In this document: positions 1 to 41,115 of the stretch, piece after piece
Layout of the letters: the number at the start of each line of letters is the position of its first letter
Position numbering within the stretch: position 1 is the first letter of the stretch
DNA from: an uncultured Eubacteriales bacterium
GTDB taxonomy: Bacteria > Bacillota_I > Bacilli_A > RF39 > UBA660
Reading direction: 5' to 3'
Assembly: GCA_900319955.1 (NCBI GenBank)
Contig: ONQM01000003.1
Span: 17,654 to 81,653 of the forward strand
Length of the DNA stretch: 64,000 nucleotides
Notes under the pieces: model-generated
Told to the model about the DNA's origin: nothing
Database searches by the model: none
What the model saw: only the letters and a program-made list of their open reading frames with translations
Translations under genes and position numbers: made by a program

Positions 1-3000
1 TTATGATCAACAGGCCTATGTACATGTAAAGTATAAACTCTAACACTTCCAGCTTCACTAGTAACAGTAAATGTAACATCAGTGTCACCAGCTTCAAAAA
101 TATAATTACCATTTCCGGCAACAGAAGCTGTATCACTTGCAGGAACACCCTCCAAATTAACATGCGTATCTTTAGATTCTAATTGAAGGTCGTATTCAAA
201 TGTATTATAATCCCAATTTTCAGGAGTAATGGTACCCTTGTCAGAAACAATACCAGCAAGATAATCATTTTCACTTGGTTGATAAGGAATAGAAACTTTA
301 ACATAACCATCTCCAGCATGACCAGTTTCAACACCTTTACCATTAACAGTAGAAAATTGTTGAGTTCCAGCTAAAGTACTTGCATCAGTAAGTTCATAGT
401 CTTTTGGAACAAGCCATCTATTACCAGAGAAATCATCTGAAAAATCATCGGTAACTAGTGAATAAGTATCCTTTGTAAATACAAATCCAGATCCACCGCC
501 ACCTCCAGATGACCAACCGCCTGTAGCACCAGATCCACCACCGTAGAAGCCGCCTCCGCCGCCTCCACCATAGTAGCCGCCTCCTGAATTAGAAGCATTA
601 GCACCATAAGCAAATTTTCCATTAGCACCTCTATGAGAACCATAAATACCATAAACACCGCCAGATGTTTGAGTAGCACCACCAGCACTAGTACCACATG
701 AACCTTGACCAGTACGGCCAACACCATTAAGTCCACCACCGGCACCACCTGCAGCACATCCATCACTTCCGTGACCGCCGCCGCCACCAGCGATTAATAT
801 TCTATTATAAAGAGTATTTTGATCATATCTAATGTCTGATGCACCACCACCATAACCAGCAAGTGAAGTACCACCACCATTAAATCCACCATTATCTCCA
901 GAACCACCTGGACATAAGTATAACTTTGTACCTTTAGCAAGATATACAGAACCTTTTGAGTAGCCACCTAGACCACCATTACGTCCTCCTTGTGCTCCCC
1001 AAGCCTCTAATAAATAAACATGATCATAAGGAGCAACCCAAGTAGTACAAGAACCATTATAACTTGCAACTTCTTCATAACCAGCAATAGAAATTCTTGT
1101 TACATTAAATACATATAAAGTATCATCAACATGTGGTTCATGAACCTTAACAGTTATTGTATAATGATCATTTCTTATATAGCCATCTCCCTCTACTTTA
1201 GCAGTAGCCTCTCCATCATAAAATTCAGGAATAAGAGTAGCAGCAGCTATATAACTTTCAAGTTCAATATTGTAAAAAGTCTTTCCATCTTCCATCTTAT
1301 AATCAAAAGCTTTACCAGAACCAGAAGTCAAAGTAATTTTCTTTAATTTAGATGAATGAGGATAAGTAACATGAATTGTATAAGTCTTTGTACTAGTATT
1401 TAACTCATTAGTAACTTTGACAACTAAATAATAATCATTCTTTTTAACCTTAACATGAGCCTTACTAACAGCATGATCAGTTTCAACATTAAATAATTTA
1501 TCAGGATTATCTTTTTCATATATTTCAATCTTTTGATCAGCAGATCCTTTGTCAATATTTAAATCATATTCATCTCCAGTATAAGGAAGATTAGCAGAAT
1601 AATTGTAATTACCAGATGAAAAATCAGTACCACCATAACTTGAGAATGATTTACCATCAATCTTTAAATCATTTAAAGAATCAATATCATTAGCTTCCCT
1701 ATTAATATTATAAGTAAATACATCAATAGCACCATTAACATAAGTAATAGAAACTGGATAGGCATTATCTCCTACATGAATCTCATGTTTACCATCACCA
1801 GAATATTTAAGTACAGATTCATCATCAGTAGTATCAACTGAAAATTCAACAATTGAAGAAGTTTTATCAACAGTACCATTATAAGATTTTGTATCATAAT
1901 CGAATTCATGATCTAAAGTGACATTATCACTAACATTAATTTTATATTTATAAGAAAGGGTAAAATTAATTCTAATATATCCATCTCCAGCATTACCTGT
2001 CATAGTTGAAGTACCATCATGAGTTGGCATAGCTGAATAACCATTTATAATAATAGGATCAGTCATATAGTGAAGTTTAGATACCTCATATCCTTCAGGT
2101 GCATACTGCGAATAAGCGCTGCACCAAACATATGAAGAACCACCACCTGCACCATCATCATCATCACCACTGTAATCAGGATAGTTATAACCACCACCAT
2201 ACCAGCCACCACCACCGGCTGATATATAAGTGCCAGCAGTAGTAAATGCATTAGCACCATATCCAAATGAACCACCATCGCCAGCACCAGACATAGTTCC
2301 AGGATTACCAGGATTACCACAACCAGCACCATTTCCAATAGAGTCTCCCGGACCACCAGTACCGCGTGCACCGGCAGCACCACCGCCACCAGCAACTAAT
2401 ATTCTATTATAAAGTGATGTTCCACCAATTCTAACATCTGATGCACCACCACCATAGATATTTACAGGAATAACAAGATTTTGGTTTCCATCTCGGTATG
2501 AATATGGCTTGCCACCACCATTCCAGCCTTGACCAGTAGAACCATTACAACCAACATATAAATAAATTGTTTGTCCTGCAGATAAGAATGTTTTTCCACT
2601 TGCATAGGAACCATTTCCACCAGCAGGACCACGATTTCCACCTTGTGCACCCCATGCTTCTATTGTATAAATTCCAGAAGCAGGAGCAACAAAATATTGA
2701 ACATCATGAGTACAAGTAAAGCCATAACTTCCGGTTGTATCTTTTTGCCAGTAATAACTAGGTTTATGGAAAGTAATTGTATATTTATTTTCAACACCCG
2801 TAATATTATTTGTTACAGTAAATGTATAAACATATTCTTTTAAATCACTGCTTGATATGTCATAATCACCTGTGTGACTTTCAGATAATGAATATCCAGC
2901 ATTAATTGCAACATTAACACGTATAGACTTAGTAGTTTCAGGTATAGTTAAAATATAATCATGTTTTGTATAATCAAAATCAATAGGAATATCTCCACCA

Positions 3001-4919: not shown

Positions 4920-5004
4920 AGTGTCACTACCCTTATCCTTATATAATGAATTATATCACATATAAAAAAAAATAACTATATTTTAGTTATTTTTATATTA
5001 AAAA

Positions 5005-5547: not shown

Positions 5548-5713
5548 TTTTTTCTACCTCCGATAATTAAATTATACATATTTTGCAAATATTTGTAAAT
5601 ATATTATTAAAATTATTAATACTAAAATAATTGGTGTATGTAGGTTATCACCTATAAAAAATATTTAACTTTCATATTACTACTTTACATATTTTCATAA
5701 ATCATATATTTTA

Positions 5714-7250
5714 ATAGCTCTCCACTTTTTAGTGGGGTGCCTTTTTTTGGTCTTTTGTTGATATAAAAAGCAGAAAGTTAGATTTTTAGCACTATAAAAA
5801 CTTTCTGCTATTTTTAGTACCTAAAATACTAAATTTTAAGAATATTTATTTTTTCTTGTATTTTTGATTTTAGTATTTTTTAAATTTACTGGAGCATAAC
5901 TTTTGTGTAAAATTGCAAGTGTCCTTAATCTAAAAAATCCAAATTTTTTTATATCCATATGCTCTATCAATTATCTTATCAATTGTATTGTTATTTGCTT
6001 CAGTAAATCCATTTGAATATCTTTCATCTTTAAATGAATTAACAATAGGCTCTAACCAGTTTTTGATTATTTTAGCAGCGTCTATCATCTCAGGTATTTC
6101 TGATTTATTAAATTTCTTTATCCATTTTTCTAACTCTTCTTTTGTATTTTCATATTTAACATTTATTGTTATCCTTAAAAATTCTTCTTTTAATGAATAT
6201 GCTTTTGCAAGGTCTGTATCTATCTTTAACACTTCATTAAGTCTATCTATTTTAAATACCTCAACAAAAGTATTATTCCTTTTTATTTTCATAACACCAT
6301 ACCAAAAATCATTAAACTTGTCTTTAGTTTTTTTATTGGTTATTCCTTTATTATATTTTTCTTCTTTATCCTTTCTTTTTCTTATCTCACTTTTTGTTTC
6401 ACTAAATGATTTTAATAACAATATGCAGTTTATTCTATTCTTTAGAAGTCTATATCCATAACTAGTTTTATCACTTTCATATTTATGGACTAATCTTAAT
6501 CTGACATTGTCTAGACCTTTTGTTACATAACTAGTATAATGAAATGGGTCGGCGACAAATATAGCGTTTGGAAAACATATTTTCACGACCTCGTAATATG
6601 GTTTGTATAAATCATATATTACAACTTTAACAGACTTTCTATTTTTTACTTTTTTAAAGTATTTAATTAGAAAGTCTTTTTTTTGTTGGTAATATATCAA
6701 GTGTTATTCTTCTTAATGGATCATTTAATATAAATGAATACAATCCTGCATCTGTTTTAGTCGATGTTTCATCAAATGATATAACTTCTGGAAGTATTTC
6801 TACATTACTTGGATAATTTTTCATTGCCTCTTTTAATGTTTCTCTTACAAAGTTTGATGAAACATTATTTTCTTTTGCAATATTATCAATAGTTTTATCT
6901 CTATCAAATAAATCTTTTAGAACATTCTGTCTTGTTTTATTTGATATTTTTTCACCTTTACCAAGTGTTTCTATTTTTCTGTAAAAGATTTATCACAATC
7001 TTTCTTTCTATTAGATTTTATATAAACATATTTAATCTCTTTTCCTCCTTCCTTATCACTTTCAACATTAATTATGTCTAGTGAATCGTCAAGTCCTAAT
7101 ACTTTTCTTATTTCTTCTCTTTTTATTCTCTTTAACTCCTTCTGTAACACTCTATGTTACAGTAGAATTATTGCATATTATTGTCTCTATTGGAACCCCA
7201 CTAAACCTCGGAGATTTACAAAAAAAACCCCACCAAAAGGTGGAGACCCC
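5714..7250 (-). mobile_element. Degraded ISL3-family insertion sequence, about 1.5 kb, with imperfect terminal inverted repeats and a pseudogenised transposase
   Basis: The left end at 5716-5750 reads AGCTCTCCACTTTTTAGTGGGGTGCCTTTTTTTGG. The reverse complement of the right end at 7222-7250 reads GGGGTCTCCACCTTTTGGTGGGGTTTTTTTTG, matching about 27 of 31 positions. Between them lies an ISL3-type transposase remnant. Confidence 0.6.
5930..7150 (-). pseudogene. ISL3-family transposase (DDE_Tnp_ISL3) pseudogene, disrupted by at least two in-frame stops and one frameshift
   Basis: The 256-aa ORF 5930..6700 carries the ISL3 catalytic-domain signatures VADPFHYTSYVTKGLDNVRLRL and SNGFTEANNNTIDKIIDRAYGY. 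Upstream on the minus strand, other frames encode the ISL3 N-terminal region (IRKVLGLDDSLDIINVESDKEGGKEIKYVYIKSNRKKDCDKSFTEK*, then IETLGKGEKYQIKQDRMF*, then ...LPEVISFDETSTKTDAGLYSFILNDPLRRITLDILPTKKRLSN*). The junction with the 256-aa ORF (MIYYQQKKDFLIKYFKK) falls on an 8-T homopolymer at 6676-6683, so there is a -1/+1 frameshift there. No in-frame Met start is visible at the 5' end. Confidence 0.7.
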
Positions 7251-7338: not shown

Positions 7339-8127
7339 TTAAACAGCAGTAGAAAACATACCCATCATCGCAATTAAAAGTATAAGCATAACACCAATAC
7401 CAGTACAAATAAGCATTGTCATTGTTTGATTTTCCATATGTTCTAGACGCTCTTTATATTTTACTTCACGAGCCTTATTTTGAAGATTAGAAACACTTCT
7501 TGAAAACATCATTAATCTTTCTTGTTTTCTCTCTTGAGAACCAATTCCAAGTCTATATAAAAGTCTCATCATACGCATTGAATCTCTAACAGGATAATCA
7601 TTAGCAAACTCCATATAAGGATCAACTGTAGAATCACCTGCATTAATCTCTTCAACCATCTTCTTTAAACCAGGCTTAAAAACATCAGGAGCATCATCAA
7701 TTGAACGTGCAAGAGCAACTGGAACAGTATAATGCTGTATTAATATTTCTAGTCCTTTTAAGTAATAAGGAAGTAGTAAATCTATCTCATGTAAATGTTT
7801 CTTATAGAAATTTTTTAAAGACCAATAACTAGACTTAAATGTTAAGAAACCAACAACAACTGATATAACAATATTTAAAAGACTTACAGTATTCATAAAA
7901 AGTATTAAAAATACTATTCCAACTATTAAACCATTTCTAAGTCTTTGTTCAAAAAGTACATCAGGATCTACTTTATCTCCATACTTCATACGAACTAAAA
8001 AGTCATAATCACTTTCTCTTAAAAGATTAAAAAGTTTAGAATTATCTTTAGCAAACTTTTTTGTATCAATAGTTTTATTGTATACAAGAACAAATAAAAT
8101 AATTCCACCAAATATAAGGACTTCCAT
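7339..8127 (-). CDS. TadC-like inner-membrane platform protein (type II secretion system F-domain family)
   Basis: 262 aa with the TM/cytoplasmic domain/TM/TM layout typical of TadB/TadC/GspF-type platform proteins. It sits immediately downstream of a second paralogue and of a CpaF ATPase gene, and its start at 8127 overlaps the upstream stop, suggesting translational coupling. Confidence 0.55.
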   Translation of the reverse strand: MEVLIFGGIILFVLVYNKTIDTKKFAKDNSKLFNLLRESDYDFLVRMKYGDKVDPDVLFEQRLRNGLIVGIVFLILFMNTVSLLNIVISVVVGFLTFKSSYWSLKNFYKKHLHEIDLLLPYYLKGLEILIQHYTVPVALARSIDDAPDVFKPGLKKMVEEINAGDSTVDPYMEFANDYPVRDSMRMMRLLYRLGIGSQERKQERLMMFSRSVSNLQNKAREVKYKERLEHMENQTMTMLICTGIGVMLILLIAMMGMFSTAV

Positions 8128-9020
8128 TACTCAGCACCTACATTCTCGTTATAATATTTTTCTCCTTTAATGAGAAAATAACTATTAATCAAAATTATAC
8201 CATGAAGTAATAATTTAACATACCATCTATCAAGTAAAAGGATATAACTTTCCTTACCTAGTAAATACTGAACTAAAAGGACAAGTACATATAGCATAAT
8301 ACCAAATTGTAAGAACCTCTTATGGAAGTTAGCTCTATCAATTCTATCTCTGTAAACACCTTCAACAAGAGTATCGATATCAAGTTGCATCTGCTCTAGT
8401 GAGTCTGCTGAGTTTCTCGCACCTTCCTTAGTTATCTGTAAGAATAATTGATGCATATTTTTAACTATATAAAACGGATATAAATTATTAAAATATTTAA
8501 TTGATTCATCAATGGAACCATTTTTATAAGCAAGCTCTATCATTCTATCAACATCACCAGCAACTGGATCTTCAAGAAGTCCAGATTCTCTAACACCTTC
8601 CAAACTTTTAACAAAAGATTGTCGAGTTGCAAATTCCATAATAGTGTTAGATGTATATACCTGTATTTGTTCAAAGATAAACTCACTATATATTCTTTTA
8701 CTTCTCAAATAAGCAAGATAAGGAACAAGTAAAATACCAAGAAAAACATATAAAGCTGCAGTAAAGATGTTATAGAAATATAAGTATGCAATAAGTCCTG
8801 CAAAACCACCTATTAAAACACACTGTATAATATAATCTCTAGGCTTATATTCCTTACCCAACTGCTTTGTCTTCTCTCTTACTTTTTTATATGAATAAGG
8901 AGCAAACTTATCATAAATAGATGTTATTTGGTCATTAATAAATCTAGTCGCATTCTTACCACTATAACCTCGATACATCATTACAAATATAGCAATAACT
9001 AATAGTATAAATAATTCCAT
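8127..9020 (-). CDS. TadB-like inner-membrane platform protein (T2SS-F domain family)
   Basis: 297 aa with an N-terminal TM, a roughly 200-aa cytoplasmic domain and two C-terminal TM helices. It is a paralogue-like partner of the adjacent gene and sits directly downstream of the CpaF-type ATPase. Confidence 0.55.
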   Translation of the reverse strand: MELFILLVIAIFVMMYRGYSGKNATRFINDQITSIYDKFAPYSYKKVREKTKQLGKEYKPRDYIIQCVLIGGFAGLIAYLYFYNIFTAALYVFLGILLVPYLAYLRSKRIYSEFIFEQIQVYTSNTIMEFATRQSFVKSLEGVRESGLLEDPVAGDVDRMIELAYKNGSIDESIKYFNNLYPFYIVKNMHQLFLQITKEGARNSADSLEQMQLDIDTLVEGVYRDRIDRANFHKRFLQFGIMLYVLVLLVQYLLGKESYILLLDRWYVKLLLHGIILINSYFLIKGEKYYNENVGAE

Positions 9021-9025
9021 ATATC

Positions 9026-10435
9026 TTAACCTCCGTTACTCATATTTTGCATGACGTTACTTGCATCTATTTGTGGCATTACTGGAACTTGTATATTAGA
9101 AGTTTGTGCATTACTAGGAATATTTACTTGTGCAGCACTTTGAGCATCTACATTAACACTTGAATTTAATGATGAATTTTCACTTGCTAAATTAATGTTA
9201 GTTGCAGGAATATTTTCAGTACCTGCTACAGCTTTCTCTTCCATTGTACCACCATTAAGTGCATTATTTAAAGCATTACTTTTTTCTTCACTTGGACCTG
9301 TTTCAGATTCTGCTTTCTGTGAAGCTTCAGCAAATCTCTTTGATTCATTCTCTTCTATTACCTTCTCAATATCAACATCAGGTAAATGAGCAAGAATATC
9401 ATCAATATTAAGATTTTGATTTTCTAGATATTCAACCAAATGTTTAGAAGGACGAGACATAATAGGATCCATATCATAAAGTTTTCTATAAAGAGTATGA
9501 CATACAGGTTTGTTATCTTCATCAACATAAAATTCAACAACCTCATCTACTTCACGATGGAACTTACCATACTTTTTAGAATAATAAGCTTTAATATGAA
9601 CACCAATTTGTACATAACGATAAATTGTATTTAAAAACTGATCAACATCAATATCTGTCTCAAGTAATGAATAAAGACGATAAGGAATTGCACTAGCTTT
9701 ATCAGCATGGATTGTTGATAAAATATTGTGTCCTGATGAAATAGAGTTACGTACAGCAGTAACTGCCTCAGCTGAACGAACCTCAGATAGTAAAATCCAT
9801 TTTGGATTCTGTCTCATACAGGTAACTAATACATCAGAGTATGATGCAACGTTATTAGTCTTCATTGCAACAATATCTCTAGTTGGAAAAATCTTATCAA
9901 GATGAAGTTCTAGAGTATCCTCAATTGTTATTATCTTTTCAGTCTCTTTAATATGACTTGCAAGATACTTAACAAACTCAGTTTTACCAGAACCAGTTTC
10001 ACCTGAAACAATTATGTTACAGTGTCCTTCAACACATTTCATTAATAAATCATGAATATCAGCAGTAAAATAATCTTCTGCAAGTAATTTTTCTTTCTTT
10101 AACCTTATCTTAGCAGGTGTTTTACGAATAACACATGCAATACCATTAGTAGCAATAGAAGGATGTACAAAGTTAAGACGTAACTCACTACTTTCTGCAT
10201 CTAGAAAAGGCTTAGCATTATTAAAGGTTGTACCCATAACATTAGAGCACTGAAAAGCAAGCTTTTCCATAAACTCTGGAGTACAACCTGGAACTTCTAC
10301 ACGAATGGAACCTTGAGATAAAGAACGAATCCAGATTTGTCCGCCATTACAATACGAGATATCGGTTATATCATCATTATCAAGTAGTGGTCTTAAAGGG
10401 CCAAAATCTAACTTATCAAATATATTTTCATTCAT
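9026..10435 (-). CDS. CpaF/TadA-family (VirB11-superfamily) secretion ATPase with a roughly 100-aa Ser/Asn/Ala/Gln-rich C-terminal tail
   Basis: Walker A motif GETGSGKT, Asp box ITIEDTLEL, Walker B-like LSEVRSAEA and His box STIHA, in the order characteristic of CpaF/TadA/VirB11 hexameric ATPases. The C-terminal low-complexity extension is ...ASQKAESETGPSEEKSNALNNALNGG...SSLNSSVNVDAQSAAQVNIPSNAQTSNIQ. Confidence 0.85.
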   Translation of the reverse strand: MNENIFDKLDFGPLRPLLDNDDITDISYCNGGQIWIRSLSQGSIRVEVPGCTPEFMEKLAFQCSNVMGTTFNNAKPFLDAESSELRLNFVHPSIATNGIACVIRKTPAKIRLKKEKLLAEDYFTADIHDLLMKCVEGHCNIIVSGETGSGKTEFVKYLASHIKETEKIITIEDTLELHLDKIFPTRDIVAMKTNNVASYSDVLVTCMRQNPKWILLSEVRSAEAVTAVRNSISSGHNILSTIHADKASAIPYRLYSLLETDIDVDQFLNTIYRYVQIGVHIKAYYSKKYGKFHREVDEVVEFYVDEDNKPVCHTLYRKLYDMDPIMSRPSKHLVEYLENQNLNIDDILAHLPDVDIEKVIEENESKRFAEASQKAESETGPSEEKSNALNNALNGGTMEEKAVAGTENIPATNINLASENSSLNSSVNVDAQSAAQVNIPSNAQTSNIQVPVMPQIDASNVMQNMSNGG

Positions 10436-10473
10436 TATCTCACTTCCACTCTTTTATTCTTTTATTCTTAATC

Positions 10474-11280
10474 TTATTGCATTGAATCTGTCCAATAAGT
10501 GACATTATTGATAAAGTCTTTAATATCTTTAGATGAAAGCTTTAAATCACCTGGATTAGACTTCTTACTTTCTGCAGTAGGAACTGGAGAAAGTTCAGTA
10601 CTATAGTTTCTTAAGTAATCTGCTTTCTTAAGTAAGATATAATATTCTTCTGGTACAGCAAATATTAACTGAGATGGTACTGCATTTTCATTTGTATTAG
10701 AGAATACATTCTTACCACTACTATCTCTAACAGCAAGTACTTTAACATTCTCAAGTAACTTACCAACCATAACTTTACCATTATTAGGATCATTTTCATC
10801 AGTAGATCCATAAGTAGCCTTAAAGTAAAGATCAATATAATTACCAGGGTATATTGAATTACTATAAGTAGTTTCCATATTAACACTCATATAATATAGA
10901 ACATATCCTTTTGGATAATCAAGAATAATACTATCAGGTAATTGATCTTTTTCAACAACACATCTAGTATAGAAAAGACTTCCAGAAGGAATCAAACAAT
11001 CTGCACCAGAGTATTTATCAATAACACTCTGTTTAGATCTATAAATATCACCTTTTATCATAGAAGGAGGAACTTGAGCTTCCCCAACCATGTCTTCTGT
11101 TATTTGAGTACTTGGATTAATTTCCTGAAGAGCATAAGGAACACTAATTGGATTAGTAGCTTGTTTAACTCTCCAGTTATAACCTATATATAATACAAGA
11201 ATAGCAAGTATTACACCAAGAACTGTAACAGTATTCTTATTAGTTAAAAATTTCTTTAAGCCAACCGTTATATTATTCAT
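10474..11280 (-). CDS. CpaB-like Flp/Tad assembly protein (N-terminal TM anchor plus SAF-like domain)
   Basis: 268 aa. TM helix VTVLGVILAILVLYIGY followed by a SAF-like segment (...PYALQEINPSTQITEDMV...), resembling the CpaB/RcpC N-terminus. It is positioned directly upstream of the CpaF-type ATPase, as in tad loci. Confidence 0.5.
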   Translation of the reverse strand: MNNITVGLKKFLTNKNTVTVLGVILAILVLYIGYNWRVKQATNPISVPYALQEINPSTQITEDMVGEAQVPPSMIKGDIYRSKQSVIDKYSGADCLIPSGSLFYTRCVVEKDQLPDSIILDYPKGYVLYYMSVNMETTYSNSIYPGNYIDLYFKATYGSTDENDPNNGKVMVGKLLENVKVLAVRDSSGKNVFSNTNENAVPSQLIFAVPEEYYILLKKADYLRNYSTELSPVPTAESKKSNPGDLKLSSKDIKDFINNVTYWTDSMQ

Positions 11281-11290
11281 TTTATTCCTC

Positions 11291-11794
11291 CTATTTACTT
11301 GGTAAATTATTTAAACCATTATAACTTGTAATCTTTAAATCTTTAATATAATCCTTATTTTTAGTTGTAACAGCTAAATTGTCTTTATTCTTAGTTTCAA
11401 TAATCATATCTGCAGTAGTTGTAATATCAACTTTATTTTCCCCACCTAATGCTTTTACAACAACAGTATTCTTAGGAGAAATTACTCTTATACTAACCTT
11501 AGGAGGTGTTTCATTAATATCATAAACTTTAATGTCATAATCACGAGTTCCCTCAACATTATTAGCAAAACGTTTTACAAAACTTTCCATAAACTTCTCT
11601 TTATCCATTCTGAGTAAGCCACTCTCTCTAAAGAAAGTATTATCAACTGCATCATTCATAGCAGCTTCTGTTGTCTCTTTTAATAGATAATAATCAAGTT
11701 CAGCACCAGTTTGTTGTCCACTAATAACACTAATTGAATAGAAACCTAATATTGCCATTAATATAATTCCAATTGTTAAAAATGCCTTATTCAC
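11291..11794 (-). CDS. Hypothetical small membrane-anchored protein (candidate pseudopilin-like or accessory component)
   Basis: 167 aa. N-terminal hydrophobic segment AFLTIGIILMAILGFYSISVISGQ, then a soluble domain. No TadE/Flp consensus was recognised. Confidence 0.5.
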   Translation of the reverse strand: MNKAFLTIGIILMAILGFYSISVISGQQTGAELDYYLLKETTEAAMNDAVDNTFFRESGLLRMDKEKFMESFVKRFANNVEGTRDYDIKVYDINETPPKVSIRVISPKNTVVVKALGGENKVDITTTADMIIETKNKDNLAVTTKNKDYIKDLKITSYNGLNNLPSK

Positions 11795-11811
11795 TATTAA
11801 TCACACTCCTA

Positions 11812-14800
11812 TTAACTAGCACTCTTTATAAAATTATTAAGAGTAGTCTTAGTATCCTCATCTATATCATAACTTGTTAAAGGATCACATGCTGTTCCAT
11901 TAAGAATATTATTACATTTTAATGCTTCTTCACTAGGCTTTCTAAGTAAAGAACCATAGCCTTCTGTAGTATTCTTACTACCCTCTGGTGAAGTTCTTAA
12001 AAATTTACTTACATAATACTTAATAGTTGGAATATCACTGCTTGGAGCATCATAGCCACCTTTTTCAGATGTATCTAATTTTGTAGCATCAGTATAATAT
12101 CCTGCATTCTTATATGCATCCCAATAATCTTCATTATTAATTGTCTTATAAGTACCATTTTTAAAATAAGTATAATCTTTATCACCATTTGTAATTTTAC
12201 GAATATTTTCTATATTCTTTTTATTTAAATAAATTTCATAATCAAGTTCATTATCATTGTTATAAATACTATCACCTTGAGATTTAATCTTAGCTGCTAA
12301 AAGTGTTGGTGTAATAGGATAATTAGCTATAGATAAATTAGTAGCATTAACACTCCAGTTAAAACCAGGTTGTCTGGAAGCAGAAGCACTTGTTTTTGCA
12401 TCTGCAACCTTCTTTACATTACCTGCTTGATACTCTACAGTACTTGTTGAAACTTTAGTAGATTTAGAAACCTTATTAGATGTTGGTTTAGTTCCACTTG
12501 ATGTAAACATATTTTGACTGTCATATGATCTAGCAACATAGTTACCCATTCTAGTTGTACATGTTTTATCAGTCTTATTATCACATGATGAATCAGGAAT
12601 TGATGAACATCCAGTACCAGTACAAGATACAGTCTTACAATTTGGATCCTTTGTTGTATCACAACTTGAAGTTTTTGTAGGATTTGGACAATTCTTAGTA
12701 TTAATTGGTTCAGGATCATCATCAAGTGCATAATAACATCCAGTCTTAAACTTCCAATCAAACATACCAAAGCTTTCTACCTTACTTATAATGTTATAAA
12801 CATCTGGTGTTGATTTACTAACTTTATCAAGTGTACAACCATTCTTAGCTCTTAGATATTCATCGAAGAATTTAACATTAACTTTCTTAGCAGTTGATGG
12901 TGTACAATACTTACCACTAACTTTCTTATACCATTGAGATTCTGCTGACATATCATCATAAACTACATAACCATGTTTATTTTCAATCCAAGCACCAGGG
13001 AATGTAATTATACCATGATATTGTGTAATTAATGCTTTAGTATTATTTTTCCAAGTACAATCAATCTTATTTCCATTTGCATCAGTATAAGAATCAGTCT
13101 TACCATCACAACCATCTACAACCTTACCAGCACACTGTCCAGCATTTAATTCAACAACTGTTGGGAATGAATGTGAAGCATTATTTAATTCTTTCTTCTT
13201 CTGCTCTTCCCCTTTTGCACTTGGGAACTTTCTACATAATTCTTGATCATAATTGCTTCCCTCACAAGATTGCTTATCAGTACTTGTATTATCAGTATCA
13301 TCATTTGCAGTCATAGTATAAGTGATACTATTGTCTTTACAATCATTTGCAGTATTTATACAATCAGCAATTTTACCAGTAAATGAAGATAAATCTTTTT
13401 CAAATTGTTTTTCAATCTCACCGGCAGTATCATAACAAACTGAAGTTGATGAAGATTTAGACCATTTGCAATTCCAAGTACAATTTTCATTTCTTCTAAA
13501 TCCAACACCATCATTATGTTCATCTTTAGTAGTATTTGGATAATATGAAGCACCTTTTTCATACATACCTAAGAAGCATTTATTCCAACCAAGTTTCTTA
13601 CATTCACTATAATTTGTTTCAGGAGAACATGTTGTGCTACCAACTAGCCAACTATTCTTATAATGATAATCTGTACAAACAGTTAAAGCTGCCATAGATT
13701 TATTCTTAAAATAATACTTAGCATATTTAGTCCAATAGCAATCAGAACTTGTTGCACTATCAGAGCCTTGAACATGTGAGTTAACATAATCATAAACTGC
13801 ATCAATATATCCATCAGGAACTTTTCCAGGAGTCGTACCACTTGCTAAAGTACCAGGGAAGTTTTTACATATTTCAGATTCTGTAAATTTAGAACCCTTA
13901 ACAGTATCGGTTTTCTTTAACTTAATTACATCACTAGATGTTGATTCTTTACCTTCTGTTGTTAATACATTATTATTTGAATTTTGTGCTAAATTATTTG
14001 ATACTTTTGATGTACTTGATACTTTTGTACCATATGCTTTATTAAAACATTTATTTATACATTTATCAGAATATTTTCCACCATCACAATCCAAAACGCA
14101 TAAATCAAATTCATCATCTGGTCCAGCTGATGCTGTATGTAAATCAGGTTTATTAGAATTTCCACCACCACATATAGGTGTATCTTGACAAGAAGCATTT
14201 TCATATTTTCTAAAATCAGGAATCTTATCAAAATCAGGTTTTACCACACATGATGTAGTACTCTTAATTTCTACTTTATATGTAAAACAATTACCAGGAG
14301 TTACAGCTTGAGGTGCATCAAATGCTATTGCAAGTTGTTCACGACAAGTATAACTGCAAACATTTTGAGCAACAGTTTTCTTAGAAGTTAATCCACTTTG
14401 ATTGAATAAAAGCATATCAGCTTTTACATCTTCAGCCTTATCATAATATAAATATTTATAAGTTTTTTCATTATCAAGTCTATTATCACAAGTTAACATA
14501 TCTTTTTTATTAGATTCTGCATTTTCATAACCAGTTTTATTAGTAGCTTGGTCTTTTAATTTGTCTTTACTGTCACGACCCTTTTTACTTAAGTCAGGAT
14601 CATCGACCTTTATCCATTTTTTATCTGATCCTTGAGTTAAATCAGGTAGTTTTGGATTATCAGGATCAATTCCTAAATCTCTCATTTTAGCTCTTTCAGA
14701 AATATAGTCTTCAAAAGTTTTTTCAAATGATGCCATATCTTCCTTTATCTTAGTAAGAATTTCATCTGAAATATTATAATCAACATAAGCATCTTTTGCA

Positions 14801-15969
14801 TCGTATCCTACAACCTTATCTCCACTAACAGAAACAGCTAAATTACCATTAGAATATCGAGGGAAACAAGGACCCATTGTTTTATTAACAAGAGCATCAG
14901 TATACTCATTCCATTCAGAATCAGATGCATGCTTATAGTATGATTTTACTGCCCATTCACATGCAGAGCCAGAACTAAAATCAGCAGATGTAGTTCTGTT
15001 TGTATTAGATGCAGCTATATTATTCAATATATTTGCTTCATCCTGTAAATCGCCACCATATGTTGTGTAATATGATTTTATTGTCATCTTCTTTTTGTTT
15101 TTCTTAGCATAAACTATGAATATTGCATATTCTCCACTATTTTCCACTTTAAAATCATATGTTGTATGCTTTGATGGTGTATAAGTTATAACTTTATCAT
15201 GTGGACCATTTGCATGATTTGCATACCACCAGTTTGTATATGCTTCTGCGCAAGTCTTATTGTTTACTCCTTTTTTGTTGCACGCATCTTTTTTCTTATA
15301 ATGTTTTACTTTTGCATCATATTCATCTTTATCAAAATCAACTGCTGCAATTTTTATTTTTTTATCTGTTGCATCCCCATTAGATATAAAAGTAACTGTT
15401 GAAGGGTCTGATATATGAAATTGGACTTGAAATCCAAATAATGATACATCAACTGGTTCTGGGTCAGTTAATGAACCTACATCAACTGAATCAGGATCAT
15501 CAACATCCTCATCTACATCAGGTTCTTCAGCTGTAGTAGTTGTAGTACTTTCATTTGAAGTTGTGCTTGAACTATTACTTGATGGTGTATATGAATTATT
15601 GCTAGTAGAACTGCTGCTTGAACTTGAGTTTGAATTAGAACTGTTAGAGCTTGCTTTAGCAACACATTCAGCATGTTTAGAATCAATTACATGTCTAGCA
15701 AAACCATCATTACATTTACAATTTGTACCTTTACTAGAAGCCCAAGAAGCATTTGCTTCGCAAGAACAAGTACTTCTACTAACTTTCTTACAATCACCAT
15801 TTTTCTTTTTGGCACCTGTACAATGACTTAATGTACCGCATCCATCAGCTGCATATACATTACTTTTGTTATTAAAATTTACATCGATTGTAAATCCAAA
15901 TAACATTACAATGGCTAGTAAAAATATTCCAACCCTCTTTTTATAACTATTTTTAGACATCTTCGCCAT
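11812..15969 (-). CDS. Giant cysteine-rich secreted protein (1385 aa) with a Ser/Thr-rich linker, an acidic region and many CxxC/C-rich modules
   Basis: Signal peptide MAKMSKNSYKKRVGIFLLAIVMLFGFTIDVNFNNKSNVYA-ADGCG. Poly-Ser/Thr linker SSNSSNSNSSSSSSSTSNNSYTPSSNSSSTTSNESTTTTTAEEPDVDEDVDDPD. Dozens of Cys are spread through the protein (e.g. TSSCDTTKDPNCKTVSCTGTGCSSIPDSSCDNKTDKTCT). There is no LPXTG-type C-terminus. The start overlaps the upstream sortase gene by 17 nt. Confidence 0.8.
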   Translation of the reverse strand: MAKMSKNSYKKRVGIFLLAIVMLFGFTIDVNFNNKSNVYAADGCGTLSHCTGAKKKNGDCKKVSRSTCSCEANASWASSKGTNCKCNDGFARHVIDSKHAECVAKASSNSSNSNSSSSSSSTSNNSYTPSSNSSSTTSNESTTTTTAEEPDVDEDVDDPDSVDVGSLTDPEPVDVSLFGFQVQFHISDPSTVTFISNGDATDKKIKIAAVDFDKDEYDAKVKHYKKKDACNKKGVNNKTCAEAYTNWWYANHANGPHDKVITYTPSKHTTYDFKVENSGEYAIFIVYAKKNKKKMTIKSYYTTYGGDLQDEANILNNIAASNTNRTTSADFSSGSACEWAVKSYYKHASDSEWNEYTDALVNKTMGPCFPRYSNGNLAVSVSGDKVVGYDAKDAYVDYNISDEILTKIKEDMASFEKTFEDYISERAKMRDLGIDPDNPKLPDLTQGSDKKWIKVDDPDLSKKGRDSKDKLKDQATNKTGYENAESNKKDMLTCDNRLDNEKTYKYLYYDKAEDVKADMLLFNQSGLTSKKTVAQNVCSYTCREQLAIAFDAPQAVTPGNCFTYKVEIKSTTSCVVKPDFDKIPDFRKYENASCQDTPICGGGNSNKPDLHTASAGPDDEFDLCVLDCDGGKYSDKCINKCFNKAYGTKVSSTSKVSNNLAQNSNNNVLTTEGKESTSSDVIKLKKTDTVKGSKFTESEICKNFPGTLASGTTPGKVPDGYIDAVYDYVNSHVQGSDSATSSDCYWTKYAKYYFKNKSMAALTVCTDYHYKNSWLVGSTTCSPETNYSECKKLGWNKCFLGMYEKGASYYPNTTKDEHNDGVGFRRNENCTWNCKWSKSSSTSVCYDTAGEIEKQFEKDLSSFTGKIADCINTANDCKDNSITYTMTANDDTDNTSTDKQSCEGSNYDQELCRKFPSAKGEEQKKKELNNASHSFPTVVELNAGQCAGKVVDGCDGKTDSYTDANGNKIDCTWKNNTKALITQYHGIITFPGAWIENKHGYVVYDDMSAESQWYKKVSGKYCTPSTAKKVNVKFFDEYLRAKNGCTLDKVSKSTPDVYNIISKVESFGMFDWKFKTGCYYALDDDPEPINTKNCPNPTKTSSCDTTKDPNCKTVSCTGTGCSSIPDSSCDNKTDKTCTTRMGNYVARSYDSQNMFTSSGTKPTSNKVSKSTKVSTSTVEYQAGNVKKVADAKTSASASRQPGFNWSVNATNLSIANYPITPTLLAAKIKSQGDSIYNNDNELDYEIYLNKKNIENIRKITNGDKDYTYFKNGTYKTINNEDYWDAYKNAGYYTDATKLDTSEKGGYDAPSSDIPTIKYYVSKFLRTSPEGSKNTTEGYGSLLRKPSEEALKCNNILNGTACDPLTSYDIDEDTKTTLNNFIKSAS

Positions 15970-16756
15970 CTCCTTCTAATATTTTTTTGATTTTTTTATA
16001 GTCCTTCTTTTCATGCATATCATAATTATACCCTTTATTACTATTTTTTACAAGTTTTCCATCAACTTTTAAATAATAATGATAAGGACCTAATAATCTC
16101 GTACACGTATATAAAGAAATTAACTTATCTTCTTTATTTACATCAATATCATATTTATAAATACTTTCTTTTAATGAGTCTTTTATAAATTTTTTCTTAA
16201 TTGTTTTTGTAATGCTATTAGGAAAATAATAAACTTCATTATCATTTATTATTGAAACACCATATATTTGATATAAATAATTAACATTGTTAAATGTAAA
16301 TTGTATATACTTATTTTTATCAGCAAAATCACTATAAACAAAAGCCATTAATGGTTCAAATCTTTGCAATTTCTTATCATTTACCTTTGGATGTGGTCCA
16401 ACATTAATATAGTTGTGACCAAAAATTGGAATAAAATCTGAAAGTTTTTTTTCAGGTTTATTAATCCAAGCATAATTATCAAGTGATGGATATGTTTCAG
16501 ATGAAACTGGCATATCAATGTTAGTACCTTGTACCTTAATCCATCCAATTACCTTATCTTTTTTACTTTTCTTTTTCAACTTCTCAACATTTTTTGTTCT
16601 ATCTTCTACCTTATATATAGGGAAAAATTTATTACTGATTTTCTCTCTATTTATAACAAGAATTATAGCAAACAAAATGAGAAGTAATAAAAGAATTATA
16701 ACATGTTTGTTTATCATCTTTGATGCTTTTTTTTCTTTTCTTATATTTCTTTTCAT
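15953..16756 (-). CDS. Class B sortase-like transpeptidase (SrtB family)
   Basis: N-terminal TM anchor. KVIGWIKVQGTNIDMPV matches the SrtB N-terminal signature (compare S. aureus SrtB IVGWIKLSGTSLNYPV and C. difficile SrtB IGWLQVQDTNINYPV). The His motif is IFGHNY and the Cys motif is KLISLYTCT (TLxTC-type). The position aligned to the catalytic Arg is uncertain and may be His. Confidence 0.7.
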   Translation of the reverse strand: MKRNIRKEKKASKMINKHVIILLLLLILFAIILVINREKISNKFFPIYKVEDRTKNVEKLKKKSKKDKVIGWIKVQGTNIDMPVSSETYPSLDNYAWINKPEKKLSDFIPIFGHNYINVGPHPKVNDKKLQRFEPLMAFVYSDFADKNKYIQFTFNNVNYLYQIYGVSIINDNEVYYFPNSITKTIKKKFIKDSLKESIYKYDIDVNKEDKLISLYTCTRLLGPYHYYLKVDGKLVKNSNKGYNYDMHEKKDYKKIKKILEGDGEDV

Positions 16757-16775
16757 ATTACTCCTCTATCCTATA

Positions 16776-18527
16776 CTAATAACTTATTGTATATGGGTCT
16801 TGCTTAGTTCCAGAACCACTAACAACTACTGCATCATTTCTTAAATAACCTGCAATCTTTGTTGAAGATGCATAAGCAAAATTTGCAATTGGAAAATAAA
16901 TTGTACCATTTCCACTACCATAATATTGCTTATATTTTTTACTATACTCTATATACCAAGTTTGACCATTAATATTTGAGTAAAAATCAAATAAAGATGG
17001 CAACGATATTTTAATATTATATGTTTTTGATTCATGTTTTCCATTGTATGTTGGATATGAACTATATATATTTGCAGAAACTTTATGTTTTTTAAATATA
17101 TTAGTACTAATTTGTCTAGAAATATTATTTTCTACTGAATAACCAATATTATTATTTTTATTTGGGTTGTATTTACTATTATTAACTATGTTATCATCAA
17201 ACTCATAAGAATAATTTGATATAACTTTAACATTTTTTGAATCATTAGAAGAAACTCTAAATAATTGTCCTCTATATGAAATATACTCTCCTACTCTTAG
17301 TTTACTAACTTTTGTTCCACCTTTTAATTCCTTGAAGTTATCTATTACATATGGATTCTCATAAGATCCAGTTCCTTTTTTAATTAAAGTACTCTTTTTA
17401 ATAACAAAAACTGGCCTAACACTAAATATATAGTTCTTATTATAGTCTAAATATTTACTAGACTGACCATTAAATGAATATCTAGTTGTCCATGCCTCTT
17501 TACTATTTTTACTATTATACGTCCAACTAATAGTATCAGGATAAAGAAAACTTCCCCCCTCCTTTGTTAAGCTACTATTATACTCATTTATTGACAAAAG
17601 TCCAGAATTTCCAATATTTTTCTTTGAATTACATGTTGTTATTTTGTCTTTATCTTTAGATGAAACGGTATCAGAACAGAAATTATAGTTTGTAACAACA
17701 TACTTCTTACTATCATTAGTTAAAGTGTCATAAAAATCATTCAAGTAATCTTTTATTGAATTAAAATCAATATGACCTACATCTTCATTTGCAACTATCT
17801 TTGTATTACCATCACTATCAAGTCCTACTATTCTATAAAGTTGTCCACTAAACATTATGTAATTATCTCCATCACCAACATAAACATTACTCTTACCAGT
17901 AGCTTTCTCAACTGTCTTAGAAAGATTTTGTGTAACCTTAACAGTTCTAGTTACTTCAGTTTTATTCTCTAAAGTATCAACAGCACTATAAGTAATAGTA
18001 TATACTCCATTCTTACTTGTATCAACATCACTTGATACAGCAACATCTTTTGCATTTATTTTACCATCATTATTATCTATAACACTCTTAACACCAGGAT
18101 CTTTAAATTTAGAATATCTTTCTACATTAATAGTATCATTACCATTTAATGTAATAACAGGTCCAGTATGATCTATATTAGAAGAAAATATACCACATTT
18201 TAAATAAGTATAATATAAATACTGTCCTTCTTTTCTTTTTACTTTAACAAAACTATGTCTAGTATCACAAGTATCATGATTATAAGCAGTTCTTAAATCA
18301 GGAATATACTTTTTATCTAAAAGTTCAACACCATTAATAGTTCTAATTTCTCCTTCTTCTGGTAAAAGATTTTTATTTATTTCAAAATATCTTTTAGCAC
18401 CTTTAAGTAAAGTACTTTCATTTTCATTAAACTTAATTAATGGAAATATAAATAATAAATAAATAATTAGTAAAACTCCCGCAATTACAAGTATTTTAGT
18501 AACTGACTTTTTAGTATCATTTTTCAT
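16776..18527 (-). CDS. N-terminally anchored surface protein with a bacterial Ig-like (DUF5011-like) domain and GxGxxxxPY(V/T)I motifs
   Basis: 583 aa. Type-II-style N-terminal TM (ILVIAGVLLIIYLLFIFPLI). HTGPVITLNGNDTINVERYSKFKDPGVKSVIDNNDGKI matches the DUF5011 Ig-like pattern. GTGSYENPYVIDNF and GSGTKQDPYTISY occur in the C-terminal half. No C-terminal sorting signal. Confidence 0.65.
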   Translation of the reverse strand: MKNDTKKSVTKILVIAGVLLIIYLLFIFPLIKFNENESTLLKGAKRYFEINKNLLPEEGEIRTINGVELLDKKYIPDLRTAYNHDTCDTRHSFVKVKRKEGQYLYYTYLKCGIFSSNIDHTGPVITLNGNDTINVERYSKFKDPGVKSVIDNNDGKINAKDVAVSSDVDTSKNGVYTITYSAVDTLENKTEVTRTVKVTQNLSKTVEKATGKSNVYVGDGDNYIMFSGQLYRIVGLDSDGNTKIVANEDVGHIDFNSIKDYLNDFYDTLTNDSKKYVVTNYNFCSDTVSSKDKDKITTCNSKKNIGNSGLLSINEYNSSLTKEGGSFLYPDTISWTYNSKNSKEAWTTRYSFNGQSSKYLDYNKNYIFSVRPVFVIKKSTLIKKGTGSYENPYVIDNFKELKGGTKVSKLRVGEYISYRGQLFRVSSNDSKNVKVISNYSYEFDDNIVNNSKYNPNKNNNIGYSVENNISRQISTNIFKKHKVSANIYSSYPTYNGKHESKTYNIKISLPSLFDFYSNINGQTWYIEYSKKYKQYYGSGNGTIYFPIANFAYASSTKIAGYLRNDAVVVSGSGTKQDPYTISY

Positions 18528-18545
18528 AATCTCTAACCTTCCTTT

Positions 18546-20102
18546 TTATTTTATATCTAATATGTACCTTTTATTTCTTATTGTACATATTATATCTAAA
18601 TCATTACTTGATGCCTCTTTATTTGTTAATTTAATAAATACTTCTTTACCATCATTATGAGTTGAAACTGCATTTTTTACATCATCATATTTATATTTTT
18701 TACTCTTTCCTACTCTGTATTTAATTTTACCATACTCATTTAAAAAGTCAATAAAATCTTCCCCTTCAAAGTCACTACCAGCAAAAGTAATTTTGAGTAT
18801 TTTGCCTTTATTATTTCTTACACTATCTGTATTTACCTTACAGTCATCAGCAGCTTCACAGTAGTATCTTCTATAAGTAAAATTATCACCAATCTCTGCA
18901 GTTAATGGAGTTAACTCTTTATAACTTCCATCCATATATTCAAATTTAATTTTTTTATTTAAATTATAAGTACCAATATCTTTGATATTGCTTATATCAG
19001 TAATATTTAATTTTATTTTTCTTAATATATTTAGATTATCTAGCTCCTGATAATATAAAACAAACTTATTATTCTTAAGCTTCTCATCTTCCTTAAATAT
19101 TAAATAAACTTTCTTGCCTTGTCCACTATATAAGTTGATGTTATCATCAACCCCACTACCAATATCTTTAAATGAATCATTATAAAATGTATTATAAATT
19201 TTTATAGATGATTTATTAACTAAATGATATCTATCAAAATTAACTGTAACTCTTCTATTAGATCTATTAATAACATTAACACCAATTATTACAAACTTAT
19301 TTCCCTTTTCTATAACATTACCTGCATAATCTTTATCAGTAACATAAGCATCAGTAATAGTAATATTATAAATACCAGCATTAAAGCTTTTACCTTGCTT
19401 ATAACTTCTATGTGTTATAAAGAAATTAAATATATTAAATATAAGTATTATTGAAAGTCCAGTAAGAGCTATATTACAAACAAGCTTATGTTCAAAGTAA
19501 AAATACTTAATATTTCTTAAAACTCTATTAAATACCCTTCTAATACTTCTTTTATCAAAGTCAAAAGATACTTCAAACTCTGCTCTATCATCTTCAGAAA
19601 GCTCTAAGAATTCTTTATCTTTTTCGAATCCAAACTTCTTAATATCTGCTCCAAGTATTCTAGCAAGTAAAAGAAACATAATAGGATACATTAGGAAATG
19701 ACTTATATTAATAATATCTCTATAAGGAAGAATACCTGAAAGTTCTGAAAGAGGAGTATAATCACTAAAGTAATTTGAAGCTCCATTAACGCCAACAAGA
19801 ACTAAAACAAATATAGCAAAATAAACAAGATAAATCTTCCAAGGTTTTTTCTTTCTAACAAGAAGTACCATTAAAGCAAGACATGCAAGAATAACAAATA
19901 TAACTGCTAAATAGAAAAGTACTCCAACATGACTTGAAAAGGACTCTACACTAGCATCATAAGACTCAAATCTAATAAACTCCTTAACAAAATTTAATAT
20001 ATTAAGAAGTTTAAAATAAATGAAAACTACACATGCTAAAATAACTATATGTATTTTCTTAAAGTTTTTAATTAAAAAGGCATAAGGTTTTCTAAATATC
20101 AT
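18546..20102 (-). CDS. Polytopic membrane protein (4-5 N-terminal TM helices) with a large C-terminal extracytoplasmic domain; first gene of the operon
   Basis: 518-aa ORF, hydrophobic N-terminal third and a soluble C-terminal domain. It is preceded by a 190-bp intergenic region. Confidence 0.6.
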   Translation of the reverse strand: MIFRKPYAFLIKNFKKIHIVILACVVFIYFKLLNILNFVKEFIRFESYDASVESFSSHVGVLFYLAVIFVILACLALMVLLVRKKKPWKIYLVYFAIFVLVLVGVNGASNYFSDYTPLSELSGILPYRDIINISHFLMYPIMFLLLARILGADIKKFGFEKDKEFLELSEDDRAEFEVSFDFDKRSIRRVFNRVLRNIKYFYFEHKLVCNIALTGLSIILIFNIFNFFITHRSYKQGKSFNAGIYNITITDAYVTDKDYAGNVIEKGNKFVIIGVNVINRSNRRVTVNFDRYHLVNKSSIKIYNTFYNDSFKDIGSGVDDNINLYSGQGKKVYLIFKEDEKLKNNKFVLYYQELDNLNILRKIKLNITDISNIKDIGTYNLNKKIKFEYMDGSYKELTPLTAEIGDNFTYRRYYCEAADDCKVNTDSVRNNKGKILKITFAGSDFEGEDFIDFLNEYGKIKYRVGKSKKYKYDDVKNAVSTHNDGKEVFIKLTNKEASSNDLDIICTIRNKRYILDIK

Positions 20103-20244
20103 AATTACTATTCCCCTTTACTCTAAGATAATTATAAACTTTTAAAGCAAATTTGACAATAAGAAAGTAATAGGTTATATCATTAAGCAGAAAGAGGTGT
20201 CCCGCATCAAACATTTTTTACTGGTGGGAGGCTCCCCTTTTTCT

Positions 20245-40685: not shown

Positions 40686-40815
40686 AAATCTTCTCCTAGT
40701 ATACTATTTAATTTTATCACAAACTAAATATAATAAAAGGAAAAAATGTAAATAAAGATGTAAAACAATTAAACTTTTAATGACATTTGCATATTATAAA
40801 TTAGAGGTGGAGATT

Positions 40816-41088
40816 ATGTACAATAATCCATTTATGTATAATCCTGGGACATCAACTGGACTCTTAGGATCTCTTAAAAATATTGGTTTAGGAACAATTC
40901 TTTCAAATACACAAAAAACACTTGGAATAATAAATCAAGCTATTCCAATTGTATATCAAGTAAAACCTTTAATTAACAATATGAGAACTGTTTTTAAAAT
41001 TGCAGGTGAAATGAATAAACCTGATTATAAAGAAACTGCTAAAGAAGTTTTAAGTGAAGAAAGTGGAAAACCAGTTTTTTATATATAA
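40816..41088 (+). CDS. YqfQ/VrrA-like small sporulation-associated protein
   Basis: GAGGTGGAGA RBS, then MYNNPF... The segment LGTILSNTQKTLGIINQAIPIVYQVKPLINNMRTVFKI and the C-terminal ...KPVFYI resemble the C-terminus of B. subtilis YqfQ (SMLNNTQQVLRAAETVGPMIQQYGPLVRNVPAMWKLY...KPKLYI). Confidence 0.5.
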   Translation: MYNNPFMYNPGTSTGLLGSLKNIGLGTILSNTQKTLGIINQAIPIVYQVKPLINNMRTVFKIAGEMNKPDYKETAKEVLSEESGKPVFYI

Positions 41089-41091
41089 TAA

Positions 41092-41115
41092 AAGAGCCTT
41101 TAATAGGCTCAAAGT
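41092..41115. terminator. Candidate bidirectional terminator hairpin between convergent genes
   Basis: GAGCCTttaatAGGCTC stem-loop directly after the plus-strand stop at 41088. On the minus strand it is followed by a T-rich run (tttattatatat) downstream of the RNB gene. Confidence 0.35.

Follow-up and report, generated by a model that had tools for sequence, protein, structure and literature searches.

Within a 64,000-nt stretch of contig ONQM01000003.1 (GenBank assembly GCA_900319955.1; the whole of this stretch is called the window hereafter), an uncultured RF39 bacterium carries on the - strand (positions 7339-20102) a Tad-like operon devoid of any pilin gene. This region is here interpreted, with a probability of about 0.7, as the intact front half of a bipartite and vertically inherited locus combining Tad-like and type IV secretion system (T4SS) genes, the pilins of which would be found in a back half displaced in association with an insertion sequence (IS) of the ISL3 family. 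As such, the pilin would be missing from the operon because the latter makes up no more than the first half of a longer locus. The gene content of this locus, its synteny, the breakpoint and the existence of the displaced half are directly shown by the data.

The operon is composed of nine head-to-tail open reading frames (ORFs), encoding in order proteins of 518, 583, 267, 1385, 167, 268, 469, 297 and 262 aa, with a spacing going from overlap up to 38 nt, in keeping with the initial annotation, where all gaps were said to be of 40 nt or less. From upstream of the first gene to the IS remnant lying past the last one, the features are as follows.

20131..20159, - strand: promoter-like site TTGTCA-17-TATAAT with 11/12 consensus matches, ~29 nt upstream of the first gene (three such sites in the region for a shuffle mean of 2.1, i.e., within expectation, the consensus match being the sole evidence)
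18546..20102, - strand: 518-aa membrane protein with a weak DUF4352 match (Pfam), first gene of the operon
16776..18527, - strand: 583-aa protein with an N-terminal transmembrane (TM) anchor and a bacterial Ig-like domain (Pfam Bact_surface_Ig-like, 2e-17)
15953..16756, - strand: 267-aa divergent sortase-like protein with an N-terminal anchor (NCBIfam class B sortase TIGR03064, 1e-13)
11812..15969, - strand: 1385-aa giant protein, rich in Cys and bearing a Sec-type signal peptide, in which neither a Pfam domain nor a C-terminal sorting signal is found
11291..11794, - strand: 167-aa DUF5411 protein (Pfam DUF5411, 1e-44)
10474..11280, - strand: 268-aa CpaB/RcpC-like bitopic protein (Pfam RcpC PF16976, 2.9e-7, 30.8 bits for a gathering score of 28.8)
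9026..10435, - strand: 469-aa secretion ATPase of the CpaF/TadA-FlaI-VirB11 group with a low-complexity C-terminal tail (Pfam T2SSE, 1.1e-28)
8127..9020, - strand: 297-aa polytopic membrane protein in the TadB position, mean column identity 79%
7339..8127, - strand: 262-aa polytopic membrane protein in the TadC position, final gene before the break
7228..7245, - strand: terminator-like hairpin CTCCACC-TTTT-GGTGGGG followed by a T run, ~95 nt past the 262-aa stop (one found for 0.1 expected)
5709..7224, no strand assigned: ISL3-family remnant with 33-nt imperfect inverted repeats (5709-5741 and 7192-7224) and fragmented transposase ORFs

Scanning the DUF5411 alignment against one genome per species retrieved 79 loci, 67 of which with a complete operon, from uncultured gut and rumen bacteria named 'Bacilli', 'Tenericutes', 'Mycoplasma sp. 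CAG:877', 'Clostridium sp. CAG:417' or Candidatus Onthousia, all of these hosts being read as RF39-like. The nine genes are present in identical order and with minimal gaps in virtually all of the 79 species-level loci. Clustering of the flanking ORFs further revealed that, past the 262-aa gene, 61-62 of the 67 complete loci continue on the same strand with pilin-like and T4SS families, and the nine-gene operon thus appears as the front half of a locus of ~20 genes, in which a Tad-like filament module and a T4SS of the Gram-positive type are brought together. The downstream series comprises the families d55 (~55 aa), d149 (~150 aa, one or two copies), d327 (~330 aa), d133 (one to four small proteins with two TM helices), d676 (~670 aa, polytopic), d105 (105 aa) and d176, followed by further genes. 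Proteins of the d55 family start with MK[EA]A[TS]G-ELN[ML]TV, of which M-K-x-A-x-G-E-L is invariant, followed by ~20 hydrophobic residues, with G/ELN as the putative cleavage site; by far their commonest family match is Pilin_N, i.e., the archaeal type IV pilin N-terminus, below threshold for 15 of 34 members (best E 0.0037). The d149 proteins carry a related leader, MRDAxG[GQ] (hhalign), and weak 'Tad' (TadE/G-like) matches were obtained for 2 of 36 members. In the TadZ position, d327 is a conserved cytoplasmic protein with a degenerate P-loop-like stretch (GxxNVTDHAG[AS]TT), for which neither a Pfam, PDB-sequence or MinD profile match nor any TadZ/ParA relation was detected, apart from a weak AAA_31 match in 1 of 28 members. 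The T4SS part consists of VirB6-, VirB3- and VirB4-like proteins, NlpC/P60 and VirD4; d133 and d676 give weak T4SS_pilin and TrbL/VirB6 matches (E 0.0016 for TrbL/VirB6), and the precomputed Pfam annotation of loci L087 and L097-L102 includes TraC-like, P-loop_TraG/AAA_10 (VirB4-type) and NLPC_P60 domains as well as VirD4-type domains, namely T4SS-DNA_transf/TrwB_AAD_bind/TraG-D_C; no relaxase was seen in the stretch of the back half covered by this annotation.

In the species of the window, DNA homology to the related loci extends no further than the 262-aa stop codon, position 7339, and the ISL3 remnant occupies the very site where related species carry the pilin genes. The remnant is identified by the DDE_Tnp_ISL3 annotation on same-species contigs and by a transposase of full length in one strain (L003), and the terminator-like hairpin next to it resembles a hairpin inside the IS end. 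Searched with hidden Markov models (HMMs), the window gave no match to d55, d149, d327, d676, d105 or d176. The nearest sister species keeps the two halves side by side, but in one of its strains (L106, 14636-17333) two genes, for an acyltransferase and a 507-aa protein, are inserted at exactly the junction that is broken in the window species, between the 262-aa and small pilin-like genes. Other close relatives have the pilin cluster behind IleS or, at the start of a contig, behind a divergent gene. The junction is a recurrent point of rearrangement. Adjoining the IS remnant on its other side, window positions 1-4920 (- strand, running past the window start) encode the 5' part of a protein of 4647 aa that contains Cadherin-like and glycine-rich (ALK_LTK_GRD) domains, at a GC content of 35-40% vs ~26% elsewhere; its counterpart in another strain is 7095 aa long with a weak dockerin match.

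The displaced half was reached by a search for d327 homologues, followed by inspection of the cluster members, which led to P0247, a 331-aa d327 homologue from the 90%-identity cluster of P0122 (65% identical to the protein of L007, a contiguous locus). Contigs bearing P0247 originate from ERZ27298202, ERZ920283 and ERZ4903442, i.e., three of the six samples that yielded contigs of the window species, and P0247 and this species are of similar prevalence (92 vs 96 index blocks, 39 vs 43 contigs). On the P0247 contigs, FTHFS, glycosyltransferase and LytR_cpsA_psr genes are found upstream and a promoter-like sequence, TTGAAT ... TGATAGAAT, is located just upstream of the pilin gene. The latter encodes a 54-aa d55 protein, beginning with MKEASGELNLTVVTIIAIAAIATFF... 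(leader and continuation: MKEASG-ELNLTVVTIIAIAAI...), which is without the Flp motif G/XXXXEY. Then come (i) d149 proteins of 153 and 176 aa (leader MR[DE]ALGG) and the 331-aa protein, (ii) d133-type proteins of 117 and 292 aa, an 802-aa VirB6-like protein and a 102-aa protein, and (iii) a VirB4 pair, an NlpC/P60 protein, a 248-aa protein and VirD4. The contigs become homologous to L007 from 15 nt past the stop codon of the L007 262-aa gene onwards, which places the break in the spacer between two transcription units. In ERZ4903442, the window is collinear with a 425-kb contig and the second half stands on a separate 165-kb contig, so the halves would be at least ~170 kb apart, if they belong to one genome. 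The missing pilin has an ordinary cause, i.e., a transcription unit relocated at an IS-marked junction. The initial annotation had left a choice between a pilin encoded elsewhere and a non-pilus display apparatus; the former is supported by the related loci and by the matching half from three of the same samples, and the latter is not needed. Of d133 type too, a lone 137-aa protein with two TM helices is encoded in the window (48158-48571, - strand) and matches the d133 (VirB2/T4SS_pilin-like) HMM with an E of 2e-13; its gene sits among housekeeping genes, between those of a 236-aa anchored protein and a Mur ligase.

Respective to the classical Tad components, the nine proteins of the operon were scanned against Pfam and NCBIfam at E<=1 with zero matches to models of Flp, TadE, Peptidase_A24 or TadZ/CpaE/ParA, and the 1385-, 297- and 262-aa proteins were without any match. 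Across the six frames of the entire 64-kb window, a regular expression with five leader patterns found no class-III-type leader followed by a hydrophobic stretch. The initial view of a module with no recognisable Flp, TadV or TadZ/CpaE, and of operon proteins with no class III signal peptide, is thus confirmed, neither the six-frame scan nor the HMMs of related pilin-like families having uncovered a pilin gene, and a Flp, TadE, A24-peptidase or TadZ signature being absent from every frame of 7339-20102. Peptidase_A24 is likewise absent from the precomputed Pfam annotation of collinear same-species contigs (three assemblies, with strain differences respective to the window), where LspA (A8) is the sole signal-peptidase-type membrane protease annotated. 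The N-terminus of the 518-aa protein had been put forward as a place where an A24 peptidase could hide. In this protein, four long TM helices are separated from a fifth one by a cytoplasmic linker that is charged and conserved (~151-205), and the ectodomain is made of two extracellular beta-sandwich domains of the DUF4352/YjhA type. Among 74 orthologues, D129 is conserved at >=95%, as is G151-x-D153, which is mostly followed by [IL]-K and is on paper reminiscent of the A24 motif GxGD-[VI]-K. Following the positive-inside rule and an AlphaFold2 (AF2) model (pLDDT 86), D129 lies in an outside loop and D153 at the cytoplasmic side of TM4; sitting on opposite sides of the membrane, they cannot form a catalytic dyad. 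The confident model is besides a plain up-down four-helix bundle with no FlaK/presenilin-type match, and, with no A24 signal to be found, this candidate had to be abandoned.

The term "Tad-like" itself deserves some precision. Against solved structures, the 469-aa ATPase best matches CpaF (9.4e-22, residues 5-257, both domains), then FlaI (1e-19) and VirB11 (6e-15, core only), and the NCBIfam models for TadA, VirB11 and FlaI all match it below their own cut-offs. Its tail (window 9026-9330) is of low complexity and rich in Ser, Asn, Ala and Gln, and varies so widely in length that the ORF ranges from ~370 to ~750 aa among species, and is of 469 vs 503 aa among strains. The 268-aa protein passes the RcpC gathering score, and TIGR03177 matches it at 3.5e-7, below cut-off. 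The genes for the 297- and 262-aa proteins directly follow that of the ATPase, i.e., in the TadB/TadC position, and no T2SSF (PF00482) match was obtained for these two proteins, for 10 remote relatives or for the profiles compared with PDB sequences. They are paralogues (hhalign probability of 85%, E 6e-6 over 146 columns, with remote relatives added), as TadB and TadC are to each other. The TadB/TadC part of the label is based on gene position, topology and mutual paralogy and is unproven by sequence.

Regarding the surface proteins, the 583-aa protein is found in all related loci and, in all orthologues inspected, has at its C-terminus (window 16776-16830) a motif G-x-G-T-x-x-x-[PS]-Y-x-[IVL] located 2-3 residues before the stop, a resembling motif being present once more in mid-protein. 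The 267-aa sortase-like protein scores 51 bits with TIGR03064 for a cut-off of 154 and 0.008 with Pfam Sortase; H114 and C218 (L-x-T-C-T-R220) are conserved at >=95%, with no conserved Arg at the usual distance, and no sorting signal of the LPXTG/NPxTN type was found in any ORF of the loci. The 1385-aa protein, highly variable among strains and species (dN/dS of 0.85 vs L007), is probably a surface adhesin or cargo. Comparing the window with another locus of the species (L005), positions 11812-17300 form a strain-variable cassette, with aa identities of 85% for the 3' part of the 583-aa protein, 64% for the sortase-like protein and 70% for the giant protein; the remaining operon proteins are 99-100% identical.

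In the mechanism proposed, the front half would provide the motor and envelope of a divergent Tad/archaeal-type (type IVc-like) filament machine, the motor consisting of the CpaF/TadA-like ATPase, the two polytopic paralogues, the CpaB/RcpC-like protein and the DUF5411 protein, and the surface parts of the DUF4352-type membrane protein, the Ig-like protein, the sortase-like enzyme and the strain-variable giant Cys-rich protein. The filament subunits would begin the back half, under their own promoter-like sequence. In this species, a rearrangement associated with ISL3 would have separated the halves where the 262-aa gene meets the pilin gene, leaving the back half beside cell-wall glycosyltransferase and LytR genes, at least ~170 kb away. 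As cleaved prepilins, d55 and d149, the latter as minor subunits, would be assembled into a filament by the motor and the DUF5411 protein once their six-residue leader is removed, a processing that may be ensured by a peptidase encoded elsewhere, or by none. Wall-spanning and adhesive parts would be supplied by the 518- and 583-aa proteins, the sortase-like enzyme and the Sec-exported giant protein. In conjunction with the adjacent T4SS and the giant protein, the filament may operate in cell-cell contact or DNA/protein transfer, a role suggested by the conserved linkage to VirB4/VirD4 genes. Elsewhere in the window (44023-46732, - strand), genes for ComEC (Competence and Lactamase_B domains) and ComEA (SLBB/HHH) are present, which makes a DNA-uptake (competence) apparatus probable, its pseudopilins and peptidase not being in the window; such a competence peptidase, if encoded elsewhere, could process the d55 prepilins.

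Several points weigh against this bipartite interpretation. First, the displaced half is assigned to the genome of the window by its co-occurrence in metagenomes and by matching prevalence rather than by a closed genome. Second, no prepilin peptidase was found in either half, i.e., among the operon proteins, in the 64-kb window or in what could be seen of the back half. Third, no significant homology to T2SSF, TadZ/ParA, Flp or TadE was detected for the proteins of the front or back half, and the putative d55 cleavage motif, G/ELN, differs from the G/XXXXEY of Flp. Finally, the ATPase has VirB11 as its top NCBIfam match (4.9e-34, below cut-off) and a T4SS for neighbour in the locus.

A more ambitious proposal, to be taken as tentative and rather doubtful at this stage, is that of a hybrid machine representing a new class of type IV filament, where a divergent Tad/archaeal-type filament module would be functionally coupled to the VirB4/VirD4 system. 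Such a machine would use G/ELN prepilins and a platform without recognisable T2SSF, have no dedicated A24 peptidase, and use the sortase-like enzyme to attach the strain-variable giant Cys-rich protein to either the filament or the wall. If true, it would serve partner recognition and DNA/protein exchange in gut bacteria with reduced genomes.

It is unlikely that the nine-gene module is instead an apparatus dedicated to the secretion and display of the giant Cys-rich protein, which the ATPase platform would export and the sortase-like enzyme attach. The genes for the giant and sortase-like proteins do belong to the operon in all 79 loci and form a strain-variable cassette, as expected of an exposed cargo, in an operon without pilin gene, but the giant protein has an ordinary Sec signal peptide and no sorting signal, the module has CpaB-like and CpaF-like components, as is typical of filament machines, and prepilin-like genes are conserved downstream in 61 of 67 species and apparently retained elsewhere in this one. 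A non-pilus display apparatus keeps some plausibility nonetheless, since a pilus could itself display the giant protein.

Two further explanations are very improbable. According to one, the ATPase and the two membrane proteins would serve the neighbouring T4SS as a VirB11-like energiser with its accessories, and the small "pilins" would be T4SS components. While the NCBIfam result for VirB11 and the full VirB4/VirD4/VirB6-like set following in relatives speak for it, among solved structures the ATPase is closer to CpaF and FlaI, which it matches over both domains, than to VirB11, the score of the CpaB/RcpC-like protein exceeds the Pfam threshold, the archaeal type IV pilin N-terminus is a repeated match of d55, and separate VirB2-like (T4SS_pilin) candidates already exist. 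According to the other, the 167-aa DUF5411 protein would itself be the filament subunit or a leaderless pseudopilin, requiring no peptidase and leaving no pilin missing. This protein, already named as a candidate in the initial annotation, exhibits an N-terminal hydrophobic helix (MNKAxLTxG...) followed by a small alpha/beta domain; belonging to DUF5411, having no prepilin leader and showing only weak similarity to pilin folds, it makes a poor candidate.

The least likely account, in which the operon would be a decaying remnant with its pilin genes lost after an IS-mediated break and its function fading, can point to an ISL3 remnant exactly at the break and to the absence of the downstream families from the window, but is at odds with nine ORFs of full length in the window and six further same-species contigs, core proteins 99-100% identical and a dN/dS of 0.12-0.21 vs L007 for the DUF5411, CpaB-like, ATPase, 297- and 262-aa proteins, all of which argues against decay, as well as with an intact second half co-occurring in the same samples and a junction located between transcription units, where a split need not disrupt expression.

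Two other features of the window are worth recording. Between the UvrD helicase and RNB ribonuclease genes (window ~40700-41270, compared with 17259-21308 of L086), the ERZ28617342 strain has ~11 kb extra, encoding a second sortase and an Ig-like surface protein, which is absent from the window. At 58005-60011, a 668-aa ORF without Pfam match, in a GC-enriched stretch (33%), is overlapped on the opposite strand by long ORFs of 365 and 397 aa, which probably reflects an artefact of composition in a biased or repetitive gene.

Uncultured and abundant in the gut and rumen, RF39-like Bacilli have reduced genomes. In at least 79 species-level genomes of this kind the present locus is maintained gene for gene, and yet standard annotation misses most of its parts, namely the platform and pilin proteins, the protein occupying the TadZ position, the DUF5411 protein and the giant protein. 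Viewing it as two halves explains the apparently pilin-less Tad module of this genome and yields a concrete candidate prepilin family together with a putative cleavage motif, while the strain-variable surface cassette may set the specificity for a partner or host. For annotation in general, an absent component may reflect the architecture of a locus rather than the biology. The literature searches made retrieved no description of this RF39 locus, of its link to a T4SS or of its split form.

How the locus relates to known systems can be considered from the T4SS side first. Gram-positive conjugative T4SSs (MPF_FA/FATA) comprise VirB4, VirD4, VirB6-like and VirB3-like proteins and a cell-wall hydrolase, and to our knowledge none of the known ones has a coupled Tad-like filament module. 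The back half of the present locus resembles them by its TraC-like and P-loop_TraG (VirB4) proteins, its NlpC/P60 hydrolase, its VirD4-type coupling protein and its weak VirB6 and T4SS_pilin matches. Unlike a conjugative T4SS, however, the locus is chromosomal, in a partly conserved housekeeping context in many species and with no obvious mobile element.

On the filament side, the Tad/Flp apparatus is a type IVc filament system made of TadA/CpaF, TadB, TadC, TadZ/CpaE, RcpC/CpaB, TadV, Flp and TadE/F (Denise et al., 2019, PMC6668835). Shared with it are (i) a CpaF-like ATPase followed by two paralogous polytopic proteins, (ii) a CpaB/RcpC-like protein, (iii) in the full locus, a prepilin-like subunit of ~55 aa accompanied by larger proteins with the same leader, and (iv) as in some Gram-positive Tad loci, a cluster that does not include the peptidase. 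The differences are (i) no detectable T2SSF, no recognisable TadZ/ParA and no A24 peptidase seen, (ii) a leader MK[EA]A[TS]G followed by ELN instead of G/XXXXEY, (iii) extra genes for sortase-like, DUF5411, giant Cys-rich and DUF4352-type membrane proteins, and (iv) the fusion to a T4SS gene set. By gene-context embedding, a DUF5411 operon was predicted as "secretion-related" in Roseburia, Ruminococcus and Eubacterium, a prediction only, where the other genes were unrecognisable and pilin or adhesin genes sometimes nearby (Miller et al., 2022, PMC9523054). Compared by description, that operon belongs to Clostridia and the present locus to RF39-like Bacilli, and the prepilin-like and VirB4/VirD4 continuation, the sortase-like gene and the split arrangement found here are not described for the former (PMC9523054). 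A parallel in terms of host is TANB77, an uncultured gut order and, as here, a Firmicute lineage with reduced genomes, the divergent Tad cluster of which was recognised by structural homology only for CpaB, TadZ, CpaE and TadB/TadC and also by sequence homology for TadA/CpaF, with small pilin-like proteins exhibiting a single TM helix, no sequence homology and in some cases their own promoters (PMC11680825). Contrary to the present locus, the TadZ and CpaE of TANB77 are recognisable by structure and its TadC and TadB are fused, and its gene table is without the sortase-like, DUF5411 and T4SS proteins, all of which are encoded in the RF39 locus (PMC11680825).

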